A DNA stretch of 64,000 nucleotides, from assembly GCA_963815195.1 (NCBI GenBank), contig CAWFGE010000024.1:32001-96000 (forward strand), read 5' to 3'. A model generated the notes under the pieces. The model saw nothing but the letters and a program-made list of their open reading frames with translations, was not told the origin of the DNA and made no database searches. Below are positions 39,733-49,367 of this stretch, in pieces (position 1 is the stretch's first letter; every line of letters begins with the position of its first letter). Origin of the DNA: an uncultured Planctomycetaceae bacterium. Lineage in GTDB: Bacteria > Planctomycetota > Planctomycetia > Planctomycetales > Planctomycetaceae. The position numbers were made by a program, and so were the translations under genes.

Positions 39733-40974
39733 TCAATCTGTTTGCAGGATGCCGGTTCCATTCGGTGTGTCGGACGGAAGCGGATTCGGGGCGGCTCGAT
39801 CCGCTCTTGGGTGGTGAGGATGCCTTGATTGCGGCAAAAACGCGGTCTTGTAATCCCACCCGCTGGCTTGGATTGGTTCTCGACCATCTTCGGCGGATGG
39901 GGGTGACTGTTTGGGCACAGCCATCGGTTTCGTGGGGTTAATCATTACCTCCACGGGGAGGCCCACCACGAGTTGGCGGGCATCTTTTAGCTCGATCACG
40001 ACTTCTCGTGTGCGGACATCCAGCATCTCATTGGGTTTATGGGTCCGATATTGCTTTTGATCCAGCAGGGGAGCGCAAAACACGACTTTTCCTGAAAAGG
40101 TTTTGTCACCGAGACCATCCACTTTCACTTGGGCCGAATCGCCGAGCGTCACATTCAAGGCATGCAGTTCCTCGACGTAGGTCCGCACCCGAATCGTGTC
40201 GAGATTGGCCAGGATCAAAACCGGTTCCGGGTCCGTGTCGGTCACCATCTCGCCGGTTTGCTTTAAGACATGCAGGATGGTCCCATCAATGGGCGAGACC
40301 AGGCGGGTTTGGTTCAGCATAGCTTGGGCGTGCTGCAAGTTCGCGCTCGCCACCTCAACTTGTTTGGAGGCGACTTCCAGATCATCGTTGCGAGCGGGGG
40401 CTTCCACTTCGGCGGCGAGGGCTTGTTGTTCGCTGAGCCGGGCTTTCGCCGTCTCCAAGGCATAAAACGCCTCGCTCCACTCCGAATCGGCAGCGGCGCG
40501 TTTGTCAAACAGGCGTTTAATCCGGAGCGCCTGATCTTCCAATCGCTTCACTTCCGCTTCCGCAACCAGAACTTTTGCCTGAGCGACTCGGCGGGTCTCC
40601 AGGCGGGCGGCGTTGACCAGTCTTGTGCGTTGGGTCATTGCCAGGGCAAGGTCGGCCTCGGCTTGGATCACTCGCTGCGTGAGAATGTCCGACGCCAGGT
40701 TCGCAATCAACTGCCCGCTCTGGATGCGGTCTCCTTCGCGGACGGATAAGCTCTCCAGCCGGCCGGGAATCTCGAAGCGGAGTTCGATGGTTTCAGTGGC
40801 CCCCTCGACAAAACCCGTGGCGTGGATGGTATCGGACGACATACCGGTTGCAGAAACAGTCCGCGTGGGCAAGGAATGGGACTCGGGTTGCGGAATCATT
40901 GCCGCAATTTCAGCCTGATACTTCCAACCGACGGCACCCGCCGCAATCACGAATATCAAAATGAACCATTTCAT
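39733..40974 (-). CDS. HlyD-family membrane fusion (periplasmic adaptor) protein
   Basis: N-terminal TM, lipoyl half-motifs (V.EGD.I..GQ..A; SPIDGTI) and coiled coil; ATGA overlap with the ABC ATPase. Confidence 0.9.
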   Translation of the reverse strand: MKWFILIFVIAAGAVGWKYQAEIAAMIPQPESHSLPTRTVSATGMSSDTIHATGFVEGATETIELRFEIPGRLESLSVREGDRIQSGQLIANLASDILTQRVIQAEADLALAMTQRTRLVNAARLETRRVAQAKVLVAEAEVKRLEDQALRIKRLFDKRAAADSEWSEAFYALETAKARLSEQQALAAEVEAPARNDDLEVASKQVEVASANLQHAQAMLNQTRLVSPIDGTILHVLKQTGEMVTDTDPEPVLILANLDTIRVRTYVEELHALNVTLGDSAQVKVDGLGDKTFSGKVVFCAPLLDQKQYRTHKPNEMLDVRTREVVIELKDARQLVVGLPVEVMINPTKPMAVPKQSPPSAEDGREPIQASGWDYKTAFLPQSRHPHHPRADRAAPNPLPSDTPNGTGILQTD

Positions 40975-41738
40975 GGTGACACCTTCTGCAGAGTTTGCGG
41001 TTCCCTGACACGGTTCGCGGCTTGCGTCTCGGCCAGTTCAAGACGGCTTGGCCGCGGTCCCTCCGCGGGGACGAGAAGTCCTTCTTTCATGGTGAGTATG
41101 CGATCGGCCATGGGGTAGATTCGCGAATCATGCGTGACCACGAGGACGGTTTTGCCCATTTCCGCGCACAGCGTCTTGAGGAGGGTCATCGCGGTTTGGC
41201 CGGACTCCGAATCCAGGGAGGCGGTGGGCTCATCCGCGAGAATTAGCTCTGGGCTGCCAACTAAGGCGCGAGCCAAGGCCACACGCTGTCGTTGCCCCAT
41301 GCTGAGTTGCGAGATCTGATAGTTGGCGCGGTCGGCCAGGCCCACGGCGTCAAGGATCTTAAGCGACTCGCGTTTGCTGGCCCTGCCGGATCGCCCCAAC
41401 AACCGCAGAGTGACTTGGACGTTTTCCCAGGCATTGAGGCCGGCGAACAAGTGAAATCGTTGGAAGACGAAGCCCAGATTTTCCCGGCGGAATCGCGATT
41501 GATTCTTGGGCTTGAGCCGCGAGACATCCTGCCCGAGCAGTTCCAGATGACCGCTGTCGGGGGAGAGAATGCACCCCAGAATGGAGAGCAGCGTGGTCTT
41601 GCCGCTGCCGGAGGGGCCCACCAGGAACACGCATTCCCCGCGTTCAATCGTGAGATTGACATCCCGCAAGACCGGGGTGACGGTGGACCCGTTGCGATAG
41701 GACTTTCGAAGATGAGATGCCTGGGCGATTACTGTCAT
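40971..41738 (-). CDS. ABC transporter ATP-binding protein (LolD/DevA-like)
   Basis: GPSGSGKTT, GFVFQ, LSMGQRQRVALARAL, ILADEPT and VTHD. Confidence 0.95.
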   Translation of the reverse strand: MTVIAQASHLRKSYRNGSTVTPVLRDVNLTIERGECVFLVGPSGSGKTTLLSILGCILSPDSGHLELLGQDVSRLKPKNQSRFRRENLGFVFQRFHLFAGLNAWENVQVTLRLLGRSGRASKRESLKILDAVGLADRANYQISQLSMGQRQRVALARALVGSPELILADEPTASLDSESGQTAMTLLKTLCAEMGKTVLVVTHDSRIYPMADRILTMKEGLLVPAEGPRPSRLELAETQAANRVREPQTLQKVSP

Positions 41739-41744
41739 TGTTCG

Positions 41745-42866
41745 CTATCCCTGTAAGACCATCATCGGGTCCACTTTTCGAATTCGCCGCAGGGGCAGCA
41801 TGGCTCCCAAAAAGCAAATGCAAAACACCAACAGGATTCCCCCGATCATCAACGCCGGCGGTATTTCAATGGGGGCCAAGGTGACGTTCCATGTTCGCCG
41901 AATTGCCAAAACCAATCCGGTCCCCAACAGGGAACCGATCGTCGCCACGGTCAGCGCTTGAATGAAGACCACTTGCGAAATGCTGCCGTGCTCTGCCCCC
42001 ATCGCGCGGAGGGTGGCGTAATCAGAAAGGTGATCTAATGCCAGGGCGTATAAGCTTTGCCCGACCATCACCAATCCGACGAGCAACCCCATCAACGTGG
42101 AGGCCCCAAAACTGATGCCAATTCCCGTGCGCTTCATCCAATAATCTTTCGAGATGCCGCGAAACTGATCGGCCGTGTAAACATCCAAATCGGGGAGTTG
42201 CCGGCGGATATGCTCCGCGAGTTGGGGAATGTCGACATTGTCGGCCGCCTTCACCAGGAAATAGTGGCAGTAACCGTCAGGCACTCGCGAATACTGCCGG
42301 GCTGAGTCGAGATTGGTGAAAACGATAGGGGTCGTCATGAAGCCCAACATCCCATCGGTCTTAGCGGCGACCTTTGCCCGGAGGCCGTTGATTTCAATGA
42401 CATCTCCCAGGTCGGCATTCCCCAGCTTTCGGCGGTCTTGCTCGTCGATGCTGATTCGGTCTGCTGCCACAAGATCCTCTGCCGAACCTGCGATGAAGTT
42501 TGGGGCACCGAGCCATGTCCCCGAATCACAGCCGATGACCCAGACATCCTCGTAGCCCCCATTGGGGAGCGTGGCCGTGCCCTTCCCCACGATGTAGGGA
42601 TCGGCTTGTTGAACTCCCGAAAGCCCTTTGATTCGCGAGAGTTGCGTGATGTGGATTTCTTTGGGGAGATCCACATTTTCCACCAGGCGATGCCCAATCC
42701 ACAGATCGGCATCCGCCACGTTGATTAACAGGCTGGCGCGATCCATTAGTCCAAAGTACAACCCGCCCTGGACGTTGACGAGCACTAATGAAAACACGAC
42801 CCCAATCACCGCCACCAACAGCTTGCCGCGATCGGAGAATAATGTTTTGAAGGCGAAACGGCTCAT
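41745..42866 (-). CDS. ABC transporter permease (FtsX/MacB/DevC-like)
   Basis: One N-terminal TM, periplasmic domain, three C-terminal TMs; YATLRAMGA and RRIRKVDP. Confidence 0.92.
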   Translation of the reverse strand: MSRFAFKTLFSDRGKLLVAVIGVVFSLVLVNVQGGLYFGLMDRASLLINVADADLWIGHRLVENVDLPKEIHITQLSRIKGLSGVQQADPYIVGKGTATLPNGGYEDVWVIGCDSGTWLGAPNFIAGSAEDLVAADRISIDEQDRRKLGNADLGDVIEINGLRAKVAAKTDGMLGFMTTPIVFTNLDSARQYSRVPDGYCHYFLVKAADNVDIPQLAEHIRRQLPDLDVYTADQFRGISKDYWMKRTGIGISFGASTLMGLLVGLVMVGQSLYALALDHLSDYATLRAMGAEHGSISQVVFIQALTVATIGSLLGTGLVLAIRRTWNVTLAPIEIPPALMIGGILLVFCICFLGAMLPLRRIRKVDPMMVLQG

Positions 42867-44714
42867 TGTTTGAATTCCCAGTCCATCCGGCCCCGCGCAA
42901 ATACTGGAATCTTTGGAGGCGTTGTACAACAAGCATGGACCTCGCTGATCCGCAGACGGGGCAACGGGGCCACCTCATAAGTTGGCGCGTCGGAGGACAT
43001 AAAAGGAGTAAACGGAGGAATCTCTTCGCACGGAATGCGAAGCTCGATTACGCCGGGGCGATCGGCTTGCTCAAGGTATTCCCGCAAGCTGCTGCTCAAT
43101 TGATCGATGGTGCCCGCCGACCCGACCCATAACTGATCGGACGCCCCCAGGCCACGGGCCATGTCCGCGATGGAAACAGCGGGATATTGCGAACCTTCGA
43201 TGCGGCCTTTGAAGTAAAGCTGTTGCCGCGTGACGCACATGCCATGCATGCCGTTGTTGAAAACCACAAAGAGGATCGGCAACTGGTAATGAACGGCGGT
43301 GTTGACCTCGGTGCCCAGCATCAGGAAGGCACCATCGCCGCAGAAGACCATGGTTCGAGAGTCGGGGGCCGACCCCATCTGGGCACCGACGGCGGCCGGA
43401 ATAGCGTAGCCCATTCCGCCCATTCCCAAGGCGATCGTGGTGCTGACGGCACGAGGTATTCGCAGGTAATGCAGTGCCGCCGCCGCGCAGTTGCCCGCGT
43501 CGAACACGACGCGGCCCGTCTCTGGCAGATAATCTTGAAGCACCTCCAGCGCCTCGCTTTGCCGCAGGTCATCGGGCAGGCCTTTCGCCAAGCGCGCAAA
43601 ACGCTTTGGGGCCAGTTCAGGCGCCATCCGCGCCGCGTACCGTCGGATGGGGACTGGGGGACAGTTTTTAAGGGCCGGGACGATTCGATCGCAGAGTTGA
43701 TTCAACTTTGAAAAGACAATTCCTTCATCCGCCTCAATCACAATCGCGGGCGTGGCGACCCGCAGCACACGCCCCATTTCGACGTTCACAACGGCCAGGC
43801 GAGTCTGGCTTTAGCGCCTCTTGGATGGGCTGGGTCGTCATCACATCGAAATCCGTTCCCACCGCGACAATGAAATCGGCTTCCTCTCTGAGAAAGCGAT
43901 GCGCCGACGGCTCGCCGGCCACGCCCACCATGCCGATGTACAACGGGTCGTCGTTGGGAAACGAATTCTTGCTCGAAAGAGTCGTGGCCACGCGCACGCC
44001 CAGGCGATGCGCAACGTCGTGGACCGCGCCAGGATTCGTGCAACGATCCACGCCGCTGCCCAAAAGCAGTACCGGGGCATGGGCGTCTCGAATCGCGGCG
44101 AACAGATCGCCGACTTCTTCGACCGAGACATCGCGCGGACAGATAAAGTCCGCCACTCGGTCCGGCAGCCAGGCGGGTCGTGGTCCCACTTCGCAGTCAA
44201 AGAGATCGCGGGGGATCATCAATACCGACGGTCCAGGTCGGCCGTTTAAGGAGTCGGAGACGGCCGATTTCAGGCATGGCCAGAATTGGTCCGAGTCGCT
44301 GATGGTCGCCCGATACTTGGTGATGGCCGACCACAGCCTGTCCGCGTTGACCGTGCGGCCGATGCCCGACGAGTCTTGAAAGGCACCTCGTCCGTGCAGT
44401 TTGGTCGGCGGCTGGCCGACGAGGGCCAACACGGGAATCGACTCGGCGAATGATTCCGCGATGCCAACCGCCAGGTTCATCATCCCGCCGCCTGACGTGG
44501 CGCAGCAAACGCCCAGCGTGCGATGTGTCCGCGACCGGCAATCGGCCATGAACGCCGCGCCGATCTCCGATTTGGCGCATACGGTCTGGAATCTTCCGCG
44601 GCCGAGCCGATGGACCGCATCGTAAACGTGTTCGATGTTCGCACCACCCACGCCGAAGACATATTCCAAGTTCCAGTCACGCAGCGTTGAAACGAGGGCA
44701 TCCGCCAGTTTCAT
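42863..44714 (-). CDS. Thiamine-diphosphate-dependent enzyme (acetolactate/acyloin synthase-like); frameshift near 43790
   Basis: VFGVGG, SE.GAAFMAD, TSGGG..N, GMGGMG and GDGAF..(24 aa)..NN ThDP motif; AAGGAG RBS. Confidence 0.9.
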
Positions 44715-44792
44715 CGTCAAAACTCCTTCATGAGGCTTCTCTCGGTCGAGAGTTGGTTTCCCGAAAACGTCATCAATCCTTGCCTTCGAGAG

Positions 44793-45800
44793 TCACGCGC
44801 GACGTCGGTTCCAGTGGATGACGGCGGCCGCAGCCAAGTCTCCGGCATGGGCGAATCCGCCCAGAACCAGGTGACTGTCACGCTGCAACTGCCCGGTGTC
44901 GACGGCTTCTTCCAGGCAGATCGGCAGAGCCGCGCCAAACAGATTTCCGTGCCGCTCAAAGGTTGAAACGTGCCTTTCCGCGGGCAGCTCGATCGCTTCG
45001 CGCCAGTTTCGCAGGAAGATGCGGTTGGGCTGATTTGTGATGAGCGTTCCGATCTGGTTGGTCGGCAGCTCGGCTTGCCGGCACGCTTCCCGGATGGCCT
45101 CGGGAACGATGCGATTGGCTCGGCCCATGATGTGGGCCAGCTTGGCCTCAGTGAAATCGACGTACGTGCAAGAAAGACTTGGCTCCCACCACTGGCTGTG
45201 GTCGTCGCGAACCACAGCCATGTCCCCGGCATACTCGCAATAGTTTCGTTGAACGATTGCCTTGACCGGTGATTCCTCCGAAGCCACCACCCAGGCCACG
45301 CCGCAGCCATCGCCAGGAATCCGCGCCTGTTTCAGCTTGCGGGTCTCTTCTTGCGCGAAAAGACGGCCGGCGGCGTTCTGCACGTTGCATAGCAACGCCG
45401 TCTTCACGCCGTGGCAGGTCATCAACATCTGCGCCTGGGCCAGCATCTGAATAAACGAAACGCAGCCGCCGTTGTGCAGATCAATGATCCAGTCCGGGCG
45501 ACAACCCAGCGCCCGGCCGACCTCGGCCCCAGAGCCCGTGAAGGGCTGGTCCGGGGTGGTGACGTTGGTAATCAAAATCTCGACGTCGCGTTTCAGGTCG
45601 ATATTCAGGCGATCGGCCAGCTTGCGCGAGGCCTGGACGATCATCGCCGCGCAGGTCTCATCCCTCGCGACGTGATGTCGTTGTTTCACGCCGCGAAACA
45701 GAGGATGCGTTTGTTCCTCCCCAGGCTGCATGAAGAATGAGTTGTCGACGACTTGCCGCGGCAGGTAACTGGCCGCGCCGACCAGGCTGATCGTTTTCAT
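44793..45800 (-). CDS. 3-oxoacyl-ACP synthase III (FabH-like) condensing enzyme with atypical active site
   Basis: SYLP, GGCVSF (catalytic Cys), PGDG, TNQPN in place of PHQAN, GNLFGA. Confidence 0.88.
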   Translation of the reverse strand: MKTISLVGAASYLPRQVVDNSFFMQPGEEQTHPLFRGVKQRHHVARDETCAAMIVQASRKLADRLNIDLKRDVEILITNVTTPDQPFTGSGAEVGRALGCRPDWIIDLHNGGCVSFIQMLAQAQMLMTCHGVKTALLCNVQNAAGRLFAQEETRKLKQARIPGDGCGVAWVVASEESPVKAIVQRNYCEYAGDMAVVRDDHSQWWEPSLSCTYVDFTEAKLAHIMGRANRIVPEAIREACRQAELPTNQIGTLITNQPNRIFLRNWREAIELPAERHVSTFERHGNLFGAALPICLEEAVDTGQLQRDSHLVLGGFAHAGDLAAAAVIHWNRRRA

Positions 45801-46438
45801 GGCCGGCCTCCCATCGTCATGGGCAACCCCTGGGCATGCCGGTATTCGAGAATGTGCTTGAGGTTCTCCAGCTCGATCCTGTGCCCGGCGTAGAAGAAGG
45901 GCCACATGTCCCCCACCCAGACCTTGCGGCCGGCCGGGGCCAGTTCGGGAAACGGATTGTTGTCGTAGAAGGGGTGCCGGCAGTTCGCCCAAAACACGAC
46001 ACAACCGGGCCGACCCAAGACCAGGGATGCGGGCACGATCCGCATCAGGTAGATCATCCACAGGTGCGTGCCCTGGTCCCAGGCACAGTGATAATCGACC
46101 GTCATGGCCTCCCGGTTGGAGGTCACTTTGGTGTAGATCTTCGTGGCACCACCGATGCGGTCCGTGGCGATGACCATCCCGTCTTCCGACATCTCCGTGA
46201 AGTCGCGGAGACTGTAGGTCCACTCCTGCAGGGTATAGACATCCGCCAGGTAGTCGAACGCGTTCTCCGGAGGGCAGTTCACGTATTCCTGGATCGCGCA
46301 ATAATCGCCATAGACTTCGTCATGGGGGTAGACCGAGTGGGTCATTTCCATCGCCAAGCTGGTCAATCGATCCTTTGTGCAATTCTCGATTCGGTGGACG
46401 CCAGGCAACCGATCCAGGTCGTGTAGTACGGCCGTCAT
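45797..46438 (-). CDS. SRPBCC/START-fold protein (possible cyclase)
   Basis: YVNCPPENAFDYLAD...L.EWT helix-grip N-terminus and C-terminal 'H.IELENLK.ILE' helix; GGAG RBS; ATGA overlap with KAS III. Confidence 0.8.
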   Translation of the reverse strand: MTAVLHDLDRLPGVHRIENCTKDRLTSLAMEMTHSVYPHDEVYGDYCAIQEYVNCPPENAFDYLADVYTLQEWTYSLRDFTEMSEDGMVIATDRIGGATKIYTKVTSNREAMTVDYHCAWDQGTHLWMIYLMRIVPASLVLGRPGCVVFWANCRHPFYDNNPFPELAPAGRKVWVGDMWPFFYAGHRIELENLKHILEYRHAQGLPMTMGGRP

Positions 46439-47141
46439 GTCAAGCTCCGTTGCGTGAGTGATGCGAAACAGTAGGGATTTGGCAAACTCGCCGGCAAAAA
46501 AACGCCTGCGTTCTGGATCTGGGACCGGTATGCTCAATCGGCTGAGTAGCGATCATTTGATCTCCGCTCGCCGTGGAGTCGCGTTGCTTCCCACACGAGA
46601 TAGATTGCACTCCACTCGGCAAACAGGACAAATTTGAGTCGCATTTTTGGGGCCGCAATGGGGACCGAGCGGTGTACGCCACAGTCGATCCAACACCCCT
46701 GTGATGTTGAGAGATCCCTCGCAATTGGGGCTAGGACTCACTTTACGAGTTGACAACGAGCTCTCTTGGCAAGCGGGTTGGAATCGGAAATCCCAGATCC
46801 GCCTCGGCTCCAAACACACCATGTCGCGTGAAGACGTGATTCGTCAGCTCGTGCGGCGGCTTGTTCCAACCCCCGTTCGTTTTCCGGGACTTGGGCGTTT
46901 AGTTCGAGGGCCTCTGGCCCTTTGATTCGAATGATTGGCAGATTCGCGGGCCGCGGCGCATGCGCAGGGATTTGTATTCCCCGCGATCCACAGTCGCCAA
47001 ATCCCACACAAATTTCATGGCTGATCGGGATCCGCATCTCAGAGAATGAATTTTGTGCCATGAGCGGATTGAATTCCGCCAGTATTTGGGTTTCAATGAC
47101 TGTTGGTGTGCATTCGGCTACCCGCAAACCTGGAGGGCCTG

Positions 47142-49367
47142 ATGACGGGTGCGGAAGGTCAGGGAACATCTCAATCTTCGCGCAATCAGCGCATCGAGGC
47201 CATCCGAGCGGATTTTGAAAAAGCTTGGACAGGCGCGCAGAGTTTGCAGATTGAGGAACTGCTCGCCGTGGCTCCCGAAGCTGAACGGGGCGATCTTCTT
47301 CGGGCACTCGTTCGGACCGAAATCCTCTTGAGACAACGAGACGGGATTCTTTGGCAGAAGTCGGAATACCAGAATCGGTTTCCGGGTTTTCGAGAGGAAA
47401 TTGACTGCCTTTTCCATGAACTTGGCACCTCCTCAACCGTCTTCCATTCGCTGTCCCTGTCCAGCACGATCGAAGGCGGGTCCGCGTCATCAGTTGCCGA
47501 TGACCTGTTTCCCAATGTGGGTCGGTATCAGATCAAGTCCGTCTTGGGACGGGGCAGTTTCGGCCGCGTGTTTCTCGCGCACGACGATGAGTTGGGCCGG
47601 AACGTGGCCGTCAAGATTCCCCACAAGCACTTGATCGCGACGCAAGCGGATATCGATCTCTACATGGCCGAGGCCCGGATCCTGGCCAGCTTGGATCATC
47701 CGGGCATTGTTCCCGTTTACGACGTCGGCCGGACGGACGATGGGCTTTGCTATGTGGTCTCCAAATTCATCGAAGGCGAATCTCTTGCCGAGCGGATGGG
47801 AAAGGTGCGATTTCCCTTCGAGCAATCCGCCGAGCTGGTCGGGGCCATCTCCCAGGCACTGCATTACGCGCATTCGAAGGGACTGGTCCATCGTGACGTC
47901 AAGCCGGCGAATATCCTGCTCGATCAAAACGATTGTCCCTATGTCGCCGACTTCGGGCTCGCCCTCCAAGAAGCGGATTGGACGCCGGCGGTCCAGGTTG
48001 TGGGAACCCCCTCTTACATGAGCCCGGAACAGGCGCGGGGGGAAGGCCACATGGTGGATGGGCGGGCCGACATTTTCAGTCTTTGCATCATTTTCTATGA
48101 ACTCCTTGCCGGCAGGCGGCCGTTTTTGGGATCGAACCGCAGCGACTTACTGGCGATGATCCAAAAGCAGGAGGCCCGCCCGCCGAGGCAAGTCGACGAT
48201 TCGATTCCTCCCGAACTGGAACGTATCTGCCTAAAAGGGCTTCAACAGCGGGTTTCCGACCGCTATTCCACGGCCCTGGACCTGTCCCGAGATTTGCAGG
48301 ACTGGCTGACGGAATGCCAAACAGCCCCGATCGAAAAACGCCCCGCTGCGCCATCCAATCCAAAAATCGACGCGCCCGCGCCGGCCCCAAAGATCGTCCC
48401 GAAGGGGCTTCGATCGTTTGATCTTCAGGATGCCGAGTTCTTTTTGGAACTTTTGCCGGGACCGCGGGACCGCTACGGGATTCCGGATTCCATCCGGTTT
48501 TGGAAAACCGCCATCGAAGAGACGGATACGGACCGGACGTTTCGGGTCGGGCTCCTATACGGGCCGAGCGGGTGCGGCAAGTCCTCCTTCATGAAGGCGG
48601 GGCTACAGCCCTTGCTGTCCGCGGCCGTGCTGTCGATTCCTGGTTTTCGTGAGCCGATCAACTCGTTTACGCATTTGATTGCTGCCATCATCTTTCTGGG
48701 GCTTGCGATCGTTCTGCTTCGGCGAAGTCAGGGACATGCTGGGCGAAAGTTTGCCTTGGGCATCTTCGGTTGTTCCAGCGTGCTGTTGCTTTCGACGAGC
48801 GGCATCTATCACATGCTCTGGCCGGGAAACGACCGGGACCTCATGGAGCGGATGGACGTGGCCGCAATCTTTATTCTCATTGCCGGCACGTTCACGCCCG
48901 CCTATGCCATTTTATATCGAGGGCTCGTCCGTTTTTGTCTGCTCTCGCTGATCTGGGGAACGGCGATTTTCGGGATTGCGCTGCGAATGATGTTCTATGC
49001 GTCCCTTTCGGGGTGGGCGGGGACAATAGTCTTTCTGATCTTTGGATGGATTGGCGCCATTTCCGCGGTCAATCTCTGGAAACGATATTCCTTCACCTTC
49101 ATTCGGCCTTTGGTTTGGGGCGGATTGGCCTACACCTGCGGCGCACTGCTCTTGGAGTTTCATTGGCCCACGCTGATCCCCCGAGTCCTCGGTCCCCACG
49201 AACTTTGGCATTTCGCGGTGCTGATCGGACTTAGCTTCCATTGGCAATTTGTCTGGCAATTCGCCAACGGGCCGCCCGAGCTTGTTTTCTACGACGGCGT
49301 CCCTCGGGCGTCCCATTCTCCCCCGATGGCCCTCTCGAAGGAAACGGCTTCTGAGTCCCTTCCGTGA
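47142..49367 (+). CDS. Chimeric protein: Ser/Thr kinase + truncated STAND-like P-loop NTPase + complete hemolysin III/PAQR domain (copy 2)
   Basis: GRGSFG, HRDVKPAN, DFGLA, GTPSYMSPEQ; 'PKGLRSFD..DA.FF' and GPSGCGKSS; then in frame SIPGFREPINSFTH..., matching the gene at 6226. Confidence 0.88.
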   Translation: MTGAEGQGTSQSSRNQRIEAIRADFEKAWTGAQSLQIEELLAVAPEAERGDLLRALVRTEILLRQRDGILWQKSEYQNRFPGFREEIDCLFHELGTSSTVFHSLSLSSTIEGGSASSVADDLFPNVGRYQIKSVLGRGSFGRVFLAHDDELGRNVAVKIPHKHLIATQADIDLYMAEARILASLDHPGIVPVYDVGRTDDGLCYVVSKFIEGESLAERMGKVRFPFEQSAELVGAISQALHYAHSKGLVHRDVKPANILLDQNDCPYVADFGLALQEADWTPAVQVVGTPSYMSPEQARGEGHMVDGRADIFSLCIIFYELLAGRRPFLGSNRSDLLAMIQKQEARPPRQVDDSIPPELERICLKGLQQRVSDRYSTALDLSRDLQDWLTECQTAPIEKRPAAPSNPKIDAPAPAPKIVPKGLRSFDLQDAEFFLELLPGPRDRYGIPDSIRFWKTAIEETDTDRTFRVGLLYGPSGCGKSSFMKAGLQPLLSAAVLSIPGFREPINSFTHLIAAIIFLGLAIVLLRRSQGHAGRKFALGIFGCSSVLLLSTSGIYHMLWPGNDRDLMERMDVAAIFILIAGTFTPAYAILYRGLVRFCLLSLIWGTAIFGIALRMMFYASLSGWAGTIVFLIFGWIGAISAVNLWKRYSFTFIRPLVWGGLAYTCGALLLEFHWPTLIPRVLGPHELWHFAVLIGLSFHWQFVWQFANGPPELVFYDGVPRASHSPPMALSKETASESLP

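Follow-up and report, generated by a model that had tools for sequence, protein, structure and literature searches.

The window analyzed here is a 64,000-nucleotide stretch of DNA from an uncultured Planctomycetaceae bacterium, part of contig C24 (CAWFGE010000024.1) of an 8.87 Mb genome in 25 contigs. It contains a six-gene operon whose three biosynthetic enzymes probably form a core of the CqsB1/CqsB2/CqsB3 (NzsJ/NzsI/NzsH) type with a variant condensing enzyme, converting tryptophan into a C1-acyl-derived carbazole catechol or quinone and sitting on a captured exporter of the ATP-binding cassette (ABC)/membrane fusion protein (MFP) kind. The condensing enzyme resembles 3-ketoacyl-acyl carrier protein synthase III (KAS III, here KAS), and its partners are a cyclase and a thiamine diphosphate (ThDP)-dependent carboligase. 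All coordinates are given in window letters. Comparisons were made with a locus (L001) on contig JBFXBJ010000253.1 of a same-family genome, G544; with three same-genus genomes, G417, G418 and G419 (regions L102-L104); and with X1 and X3, two runs with contigs of relatives, X3 being from another study. The features of the locus are as follows.

45797..46438, minus strand: CqsB2/NzsI-like carbazole synthase (Bet v1/START fold, SRPBCC), 213 aa; PDB match 6ipv.
44793..45800, minus strand: KAS III-like condensing enzyme, 335 aa, occupying the CqsB1/NzsJ position; Pfam ACP_syn_III_C, FabH scores below cut-offs.
42863..44714, minus strand: ThDP-dependent carboligase in the CqsB3/NzsH position, in two frames (44714-43734 and 43789-42863); TPP_enzyme_N/M/C.
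43804..43804, no strand: surplus single base breaking the ThDP frame; missing from the X1 and X3 contigs.
41745..42866, minus strand: DevC/FtsX-MacB-type ABC permease, 373 aa, from family profiles; orthologue in the FeeM/ThiF operon of relatives.
40971..41738, minus strand: DevA-like ABC ATPase, 255 aa; top model TIGR02982, below cut-off.
39733..40974, minus strand: DevB/HlyD-type MFP, 413 aa, from family profiles.
39801..39839, minus strand: relic of a ThiF gene start, first 13 codons; matched to the ThiF gene downstream of the MFP gene in relatives.

The six co-oriented genes lie on the minus strand from 46438 to 39733, as the initial annotation had described. The three ATGA overlaps it reported (45797/45800, 42863/42866 and 40971/40974) were read directly in the sequence, and the remaining junctions are gaps of 78 nt between the KAS and ThDP genes and 6 nt between the permease and ATPase genes. 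No acyl carrier protein (ACP) or coenzyme A (CoA) ligase open reading frame (ORF) was found within the operon by the ORF list and a family scan, again in agreement with that annotation. A promoter scan of the operon gave nothing above chance, a terminator scan gave no site tied to the operon ends, and no upstream motif was seen to be conserved beyond 35 nt 5’ of the cyclase start.

A Pfam scan of the first operon protein gave no match. The sole convincing PDB match was CqsB2 (6ipv), the carbazole synthase of carquinostatin, with an E value of 3e-49 over residues 17-204, and on its sequence the first gene is a homologue of CqsB2. The catalytic residues of CqsB2 are E105, Y144, Y172, H206 and E209 (PMC7466098). 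When mapped by hand on the PDB-match alignment, these residues correspond to D93, Y130, Y158, H186 and E189 of the cyclase. Four of the five are identical and the fifth, Glu105, is replaced by Asp (D93); all five positions are invariant in 56 of 56 aligned cyclase homologues. The pattern expected of the CqsB2/NzsI homologue in a carbazole-synthase cluster, namely Tyr, Tyr, His and Glu together with an acidic residue at position 105, is present in this protein.

The ThDP gene is broken in the window, and its intact orthologue in L001, which is 90% and 83% identical to the two window halves, was used for comparison. Against plasmid records, the top match among 90 was a locus from Embleya (53% identity); the second reached 38%. 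The Embleya locus has the order KAS, cyclase, ThDP enzyme and squalene/phytoene-synthase-like gene, which is the cqsB1-B4 set. In quick trees, for which SH-aLRT (approximate likelihood-ratio) support alone was computed, the Embleya ThDP enzyme nests among the loci with cyclase-KAS-ThDP order, including the window enzyme (SH-aLRT 95-97). The clade containing it lies apart from the loci with ThDP-cyclase-KAS order and from the genome's own ThDP enzymes; the grouping with housekeeping enzymes that the initial annotation had named as a possible refutation is not what was observed. The clustered ThDP gene, frameshifted though it is in the window, thus groups with a cqs-type enzyme assigned to the NzsH/CqsB3 group by the gene content of its locus. 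Acetolactate synthases, together with BbmA and CsmA-type entries, are the enzyme's best relatives among solved structures. None of the curated family cut-offs was reached; the intact orthologue scored 253 bits against 538 for acolac_lg.

The plasmid record of Embleya sp. NBC_00896 (L005:8783-13480) carries an unannotated cqsB1-B4-type cluster with a prenyltransferase-like gene. Judged from these genes, the strain is likely a producer of a prenylated carbazole.

The KAS structure, modelled from an alignment, has a FabH fold with a predicted local distance difference test (pLDDT) value of 92.5 and a template-modelling (TM) score of about 0.83; a single-sequence fold gave a pLDDT of only 34. A structure search with this model returned only generic FabH/PqsC matches. 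Residues C113, N256 and N286 are invariant in 31 of 31 aligned homologues, with Asn at the position of the usual catalytic His. An NQP motif was found in 74 of 77 extracted homologues, HQP in the Embleya enzyme, and two rows were ambiguous. The protein is without the Cys-His-Asn triad and scores 88 bits with the fabH model, for which the cut-off is 292; the genome's own FabH carries HQAN. In terms of what a CqsB1/NzsJ-type KAS should look like, the gene is present and overlaps the cyclase gene, and the protein retains Cys and Asn, has His replaced by Asn, and falls in a clade apart from the His-type Embleya anchor, with which it shares 25% identity.

A contig scan with KAS alone as query gave only three loci. 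In a Solirubrobacterales genome in which no cyclase was found, an Asn-type KAS (L002:8001-9083) adjoins an AMP-binding-like ORF. The Asn-type KAS clade may also function in the absence of the cyclase.

The three genes form a set well beyond this genome. Co-occurrence was counted in the 80 best of 482 confirmed metagenome loci. The KAS gene follows the cyclase gene in 71 of 71 loci with room for it, and a ThDP gene adjoins in all 41 loci with room on both sides. The operon had been called an orphan, and failure of its genes to co-occur elsewhere had been set as grounds for rejecting it; the core is in fact widespread. The gene order of the window was found in 36 loci and the order ThDP-cyclase-KAS in 24. 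The spread of the core was already known, since a carbazole review (PMC7466098) records homologues of the core from other actinomycetes as well as from Sorangium and Scytonema. Among the planctomycetes the cyclase is rare, occurring in 0 of 400 sampled phylum genomes, 2 of 397 family genomes and 0 of 3 same-genus genomes. A sample of Actinomycetota yielded it in 7 of 300 genomes, none identified as carrying the canonical Streptomyces cluster.

Neighbour scans covered a chosen subset of ORFs (44 and 36). The core neighbours scanned in relatives include class I/II aminotransferases, O-methyltransferases, P450s, sulfotransferases and, at one locus, an ACP together with an acyl-AMP ligase. The aminotransferases, O-methyltransferases, P450s and ACP with ligase among them mirror the tailoring genes of carbazole clusters and were counted for the carbazole reading. 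A second planctomycete core, in G545 (L091:6606-12826), is followed by an O-methyltransferase and a P450 gene, which resemble the tailoring genes of carbazomycin and neocarazostatin. At L062:8163-17821 the core stands with an ACP, an acyl-AMP ligase and two methyltransferases, and this cluster is a candidate for a long-chain (lipocarbazole-like) variant. A Tsukamurella plasmid record also bears cyclase and ThDP genes, and Tsukamurella is presumably the source of the lipocarbazoles. Lipocarbazoles are included in the carbazole review (PMC7466098).

The core also meets transporters repeatedly. Its junction with this exporter is not unique to the window, as in X3 (about 90% identical) one contig runs from the KAS gene through the MFP gene and another bears the cyclase. 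Within the 15-locus clade around the window, a DevC-type pump is adjacent in five loci (the window, L008, L010, L011 and L016), the other four pumps being only 23-27% like that of the window; an MMPL gene was found in three (L014, L018 and L019), and the others have none or are too short. The repeated pairing with such pumps suggests that the product is lipophilic.

Docking was used to look at the contact between the first two enzymes. The cyclase dimer with KAS gave a score of 0.75 (runs 0.76, 0.75 and 0.00), and the best of three controls gave 0.00. This mark is reached by 116 of 157 solved complexes and by 2 of 215 mismatched pairs, counts that apply only roughly here. Two of three runs scored, the runs agree in at least 9% of contacts, and partner pLDDT is at least 84. 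The docked interface joins the cyclase's N-terminal arm to KAS residues 217-233 and 259-271, adjoining N256, a region which we take to be the mouth of the FabH tunnel. In CqsB2 the N-terminal arm covers the pocket, and the KAS and cyclase are said to have to work in concert so as to shield an unstable intermediate (PMC7466098). The CqsB2 PDB entries list that protein alone. The model supports binding of the cyclase dimer to KAS and names residues with which the concerted action can be probed.

The exporter appears to have a different origin from the enzymes. Like the DevBCA heterocyst glycolipid exporter and MacAB, it has a separate permease, ATPase and adaptor, and the DevC, DevA and DevB models (TIGR01185, TIGR02982 and TIGR02971) are among its best matches. 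However, all three proteins miss the Dev cut-offs (109/290, 234/296 and 77/129 bits), so that the architecture is DevBCA-like but the exporter is not a member. The cargo of DevBCA is the heterocyst glycolipid. Exporter DNA was found in all three same-genus genomes at 71-73% identity, and the match stops exactly at the permease ATG, 42866. The permease is 72-73% identical at the amino acid level to its G417 and G418 orthologues, the ATPase 73-76% and the MFP 46-55% to their same-genus orthologues. In all three genomes the gene upstream of the exporter encodes FeeM, an N-acyl amino acid synthase (NAS); the order is FeeM-permease-ATPase-MFP-ThiF-P450 in G417 and G418 and FeeM-exporter in G419. 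Downstream of the MFP gene in G417 and G418 are PRK08223-type ThiF, P450, desaturase and nitroreductase-like genes, adjoining an exosortase/exopolysaccharide locus. In the family, the permease was found at E <= 1e-80 in 31 of 397 genomes; among 24 family permease loci with 1.5 kb flanks, FeeM is upstream in 13 and a ThDP gene is present in none.

Traces of the older arrangement are also seen in the window. In the ThiF relic 10 of the 13 residues match, as do 30 of 35 nt, and the relic sits exactly where ThiF begins in relatives. Its score of 55 was reached by none of 1000 shuffles of the 600-nt region, the best of which gave 54. No orthologue of the relatives' ThiF was found in the window's own genome, where the best match is 34% over 116 aa and nine other ThiF-family matches occur. 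A lone FeeM orthologue, frameshifted, lies on contig C15. These comparisons make it likely that the exporter was captured from an older N-acyl amino acid cluster. In the simplest history the core would have replaced FeeM and the downstream genes would have been deleted, a direction that is read from distributions and not from a rooted test. The claim that the exporter is dedicated to the enzymes does not hold, as its orthologues belong to the FeeM/ThiF cluster in relatives. Neither does a conserved translational coupling between the two. In X3 the stop of the ThDP frame falls at 42885-42883, which leaves 16 nt to the permease start, and the ATGA overlap is absent; the window ThDP protein runs 48 residues past the last conserved PPF motif, compared with 15-26 in most homologues.

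A gene set of NAS, ThiF and nitroreductase has been proposed for the stieleriacines and tyrazolones (PMC12479983). This is the same set as in the FeeM-ThiF-P450-desaturase-nitroreductase-like operon around the exporter orthologues in relatives, whereas the window holds only 13 ThiF codons and the FeeM of its genome lies elsewhere, frameshifted. The available part of that paper makes no mention of an exporter, transporter or ABC protein with these clusters. The FeeM-exporter operons beside the exosortase/exopolysaccharide locus (L102:11015-19434, L103:292-8620 and L104:3956-10249) are candidate N-acyl amino acid or oxazolone clusters with their own pump. A second DevB/C/C/A-like exporter, with apparent frameshifts, is present in the window's own genome (G000:C12:98911-103783).

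A pathway can be proposed from the known route, in which CqsB3/NzsH joins indole-3-pyruvate and pyruvate, an acyl thioester is condensed with their product by CqsB1/NzsJ, and the closure of ring A falls to CqsB2/NzsI (PMC7466098). Here a housekeeping aminotransferase encoded elsewhere in the genome would supply indole-3-pyruvate, from which the ThDP carboligase would likely form an acyloin-type intermediate. On its C113, KAS would take up an acyl group supplied by primary metabolism as acyl-CoA or acyl-ACP and would condense it with loss of CO2, Asn256 acting as hydrogen-bond donor in place of His. The cyclase dimer is predicted to dock on KAS and take over the unstable product, and attack of indole C2 on the new ketone, followed by dehydration and water addition, would give ring A. 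The DevC/A/B-type pump, together with an outer-membrane channel from elsewhere, would then carry the lipophilic product out. In this scheme the carbazole is predicted from the genes; directly observed are the identities and co-occurrence of the genes, the residues conserved in them, the ancestral neighbourhood of the exporter and the relic of ThiF. The outline given in the initial annotation, of a specialised-metabolite operon with a ThDP acyloin step, KAS acylation, START-fold cyclisation and substrates from primary metabolism, is retained, each part as likely.

Like the carquinostatin (cqsB1/B2/B3) and neocarazostatin (nzsJ/I/H) clusters of Streptomyces, the operon unites a ThDP enzyme, a KAS III-like enzyme and a Bet v1-fold cyclase, the last with its catalytic residues kept. 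It differs in its cyclase-KAS-ThDP order, in the His to Asn change and low identity of its KAS, and in the Glu105 to Asp change. It is also without the aminotransferase, ACP, second KAS III, prenyltransferase and P450, and it is followed by an ABC/MFP exporter in a planctomycete host. The carbazomycin cluster (cbz) of Streptomyces luteosporeus likewise has the core without a cluster ACP or NzsF, but it has its own aminotransferase, O-methyltransferase and redox genes, of which the operon has none. Carbazomycins are still made without ACP and NzsF (PMC11610953), and CqsB1 accepts CoA esters (PMC7466098), so a bare core can work. The substrate range of NzsH and the formation of chlocarbazomycin are treated elsewhere (PMC9822442 and PMC10100901, respectively).

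The ECF (extracytoplasmic function) sigma factor and kinases that flank the operon were considered as parts of the system and set aside because neighbours vary between related loci. One flanking ORF (47103-49367, plus strand) encodes a Ser/Thr kinase and nSTAND1 stub that runs in frame into an HlyIII/TrhA membrane domain at about residue 513. Its G419 orthologue carries on as a kinase-nSTAND1 protein of more than 1300 aa; in G418 the counterpart of the HlyIII part lies at a separate place. The ORF is likely a local deletion-fusion or a misassembly.

Several observations weigh against a carbazole product or against parts of the history given above. The chemistry of the KAS may differ, because it is without the catalytic His. 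In quick trees (the KAS tree excluding rows L055, L067 and L034) the Embleya KAS and the Embleya cyclase, the latter 43% identical, both fall outside the window clades on long branches. The Embleya locus is the sole canonical anchor and was identified from gene content, not from published NzsH/NzsJ sequences. A topology with the Embleya ThDP enzyme held outside its clade was rejected at p-AU (approximately unbiased test) 0.037, a marginal result of a test picked after a tree had been viewed. Conservation at the docked interface is barely above average (0.77 vs 0.73 and 0.70 vs 0.63). There is no tryptophan aminotransferase in the operon, although one stands beside the core in several relatives, and the best homologue in the genome of the cluster-linked aminotransferases is 32% identical. 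The ThDP gene is frameshifted in the window assembly, though intact in near relatives. As for the exporter, a single genus accounts for five of the 13 loci with FeeM, and the three same-genus genomes are 85-94% complete.

The frameshift raises the question of whether the cluster is active in this strain at all. It had been placed near 43790; the ThDP gene is indeed left in two frames, and the exact site is one extra base at 43804. This base is missing from a 1033-nt X1 contig, which has five other differences, and from a 7481-nt X3 contig. With two independent contigs free of it, the extra base is, by this comparison, either a strain-level lesion or an error of the assembly. At the synonymous sites 43451 and 44013, and over 9 nt near the KAS end, X1 departs from the window. 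It is thus a sister strain, and its reading is no proof of assembly error. The ThiF relic and the fused kinase-HlyIII ORF next door are further deletions in the region and would fit a decaying locus. On the other hand, the other five genes are open and X3 has the whole operon, on two contigs. Across 602 kb of paralogue-covered DNA in the genome, 52 junction bins look frameshift-like, or about one per 12 kb, a crude count in which true pseudogenes are included and some bins are duplicated. About 0.5 such junctions are expected in 6.7 kb, and at this rate one in the operon is unremarkable. The regions L102-L104 of the same-genus genomes contain many frameshifted genes, which points to indel-prone assemblies of these relatives. 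We consider inactivity through a real lesion unlikely; it would be compatible with the carbazole identity of the family.

A related ring system other than carbazole, made by the same core, is quite unlikely. It would arise if the His-less KAS condensed or acylated differently, giving for example an O-acyl acyloin or a rearranged indole ester, or if the ThDP enzyme used another aromatic 2-oxo acid. This alternative is kept mainly because of the long branches on which the Embleya KAS and cyclase fall outside the window clades. Glu105 is Asp throughout the window cyclase clade, and uncyclised CqsB1/NzsJ products rearrange to indole esters (PMC7466098). Literature searches, which covered few subscription papers, found no characterised member of the His-less KAS clade, which is large. 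However, the water-binding and acid/base residues of the cyclase are invariant, the cqs-type enzyme is a near relative of the ThDP enzyme, and the tailoring genes beside the core in relatives mirror those of carbazole clusters. Ring closure, as judged from the CqsB2 mechanism, would also need an electron-rich carbon such as indole C2.

The furanolide or butenolide product favoured in the initial annotation is very unlikely. Such a product would be built by a CybE/CybF-type pair with the START protein as a helper. Furanolide clusters (cyanobacterin cybE/cybF) do share with the operon a KAS III-like enzyme that acts after a ThDP acyloin step, and the operon's missing CoA ligase does not exclude them, because in Plesiocystis only the cybE/cybF pair is clustered (PMC13288894, PMC8777810). 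Unlike the operon, however, the furanolide route as described in the available parts of these papers proceeds from coumaroyl- or cinnamoyl-CoA through O-acylation and a Morita-Baylis-Hillman step and uses no START cyclase. Here a CqsB2 homologue is the fixed partner of the KAS, and a furanolide is consequently not the best-fitting product class. Nor does the operon encode an ammonia lyase or a CoA ligase that would provide a cinnamoyl-type CoA ester; clustering of these genes is not a strict requirement. The C-terminal half of the ThDP enzyme scores about 61-65 bits with ScyA-type models, whose cut-offs are 1000 or more, and no ScyA model is among the best 25 for the intact orthologue. That the enzymes are a housekeeping or catabolic acetolactate synthase and FabH beside an unrelated pump is scarcely credible and largely refuted already: these families supply the top named models, but all scores are far below their cut-offs, the genome has its own FabH and other ThDP enzymes outside the clade, and the cyclase is rare.

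The operon is thus best described as a variant carbazole-synthase-type cluster with a captured exporter. The core chemistry is already known, which limits the surprise; the host group is new and the swap is readable. Literature searches, again covering few subscription papers, turned up no publication that links planctomycetes with a carbazole cluster. In a 2025 review planctomycetes are credited with five classes of compounds, with no mention of carbazole in the available part (PMC12078418). A broader picture, which is possible but which we would sooner doubt than expect, is that planctomycetes make and export lipophilic carbazole alkaloids by a minimal three-enzyme core with a His-less KAS and channelling to a cyclase dimer. 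In that picture the core would be a mobile cassette that repeatedly recruits lipid exporters and that here displaced stieleriacine-type enzymes, keeping the pump and leaving a 13-codon scar. The locus gives a clear view of a cluster in which the exporter has stayed while the enzymes changed. A soil planctomycete has likely gained a new product in this way, and the carbazole reading, if true, would extend the products of a poorly mined phylum by an alkaloid class.

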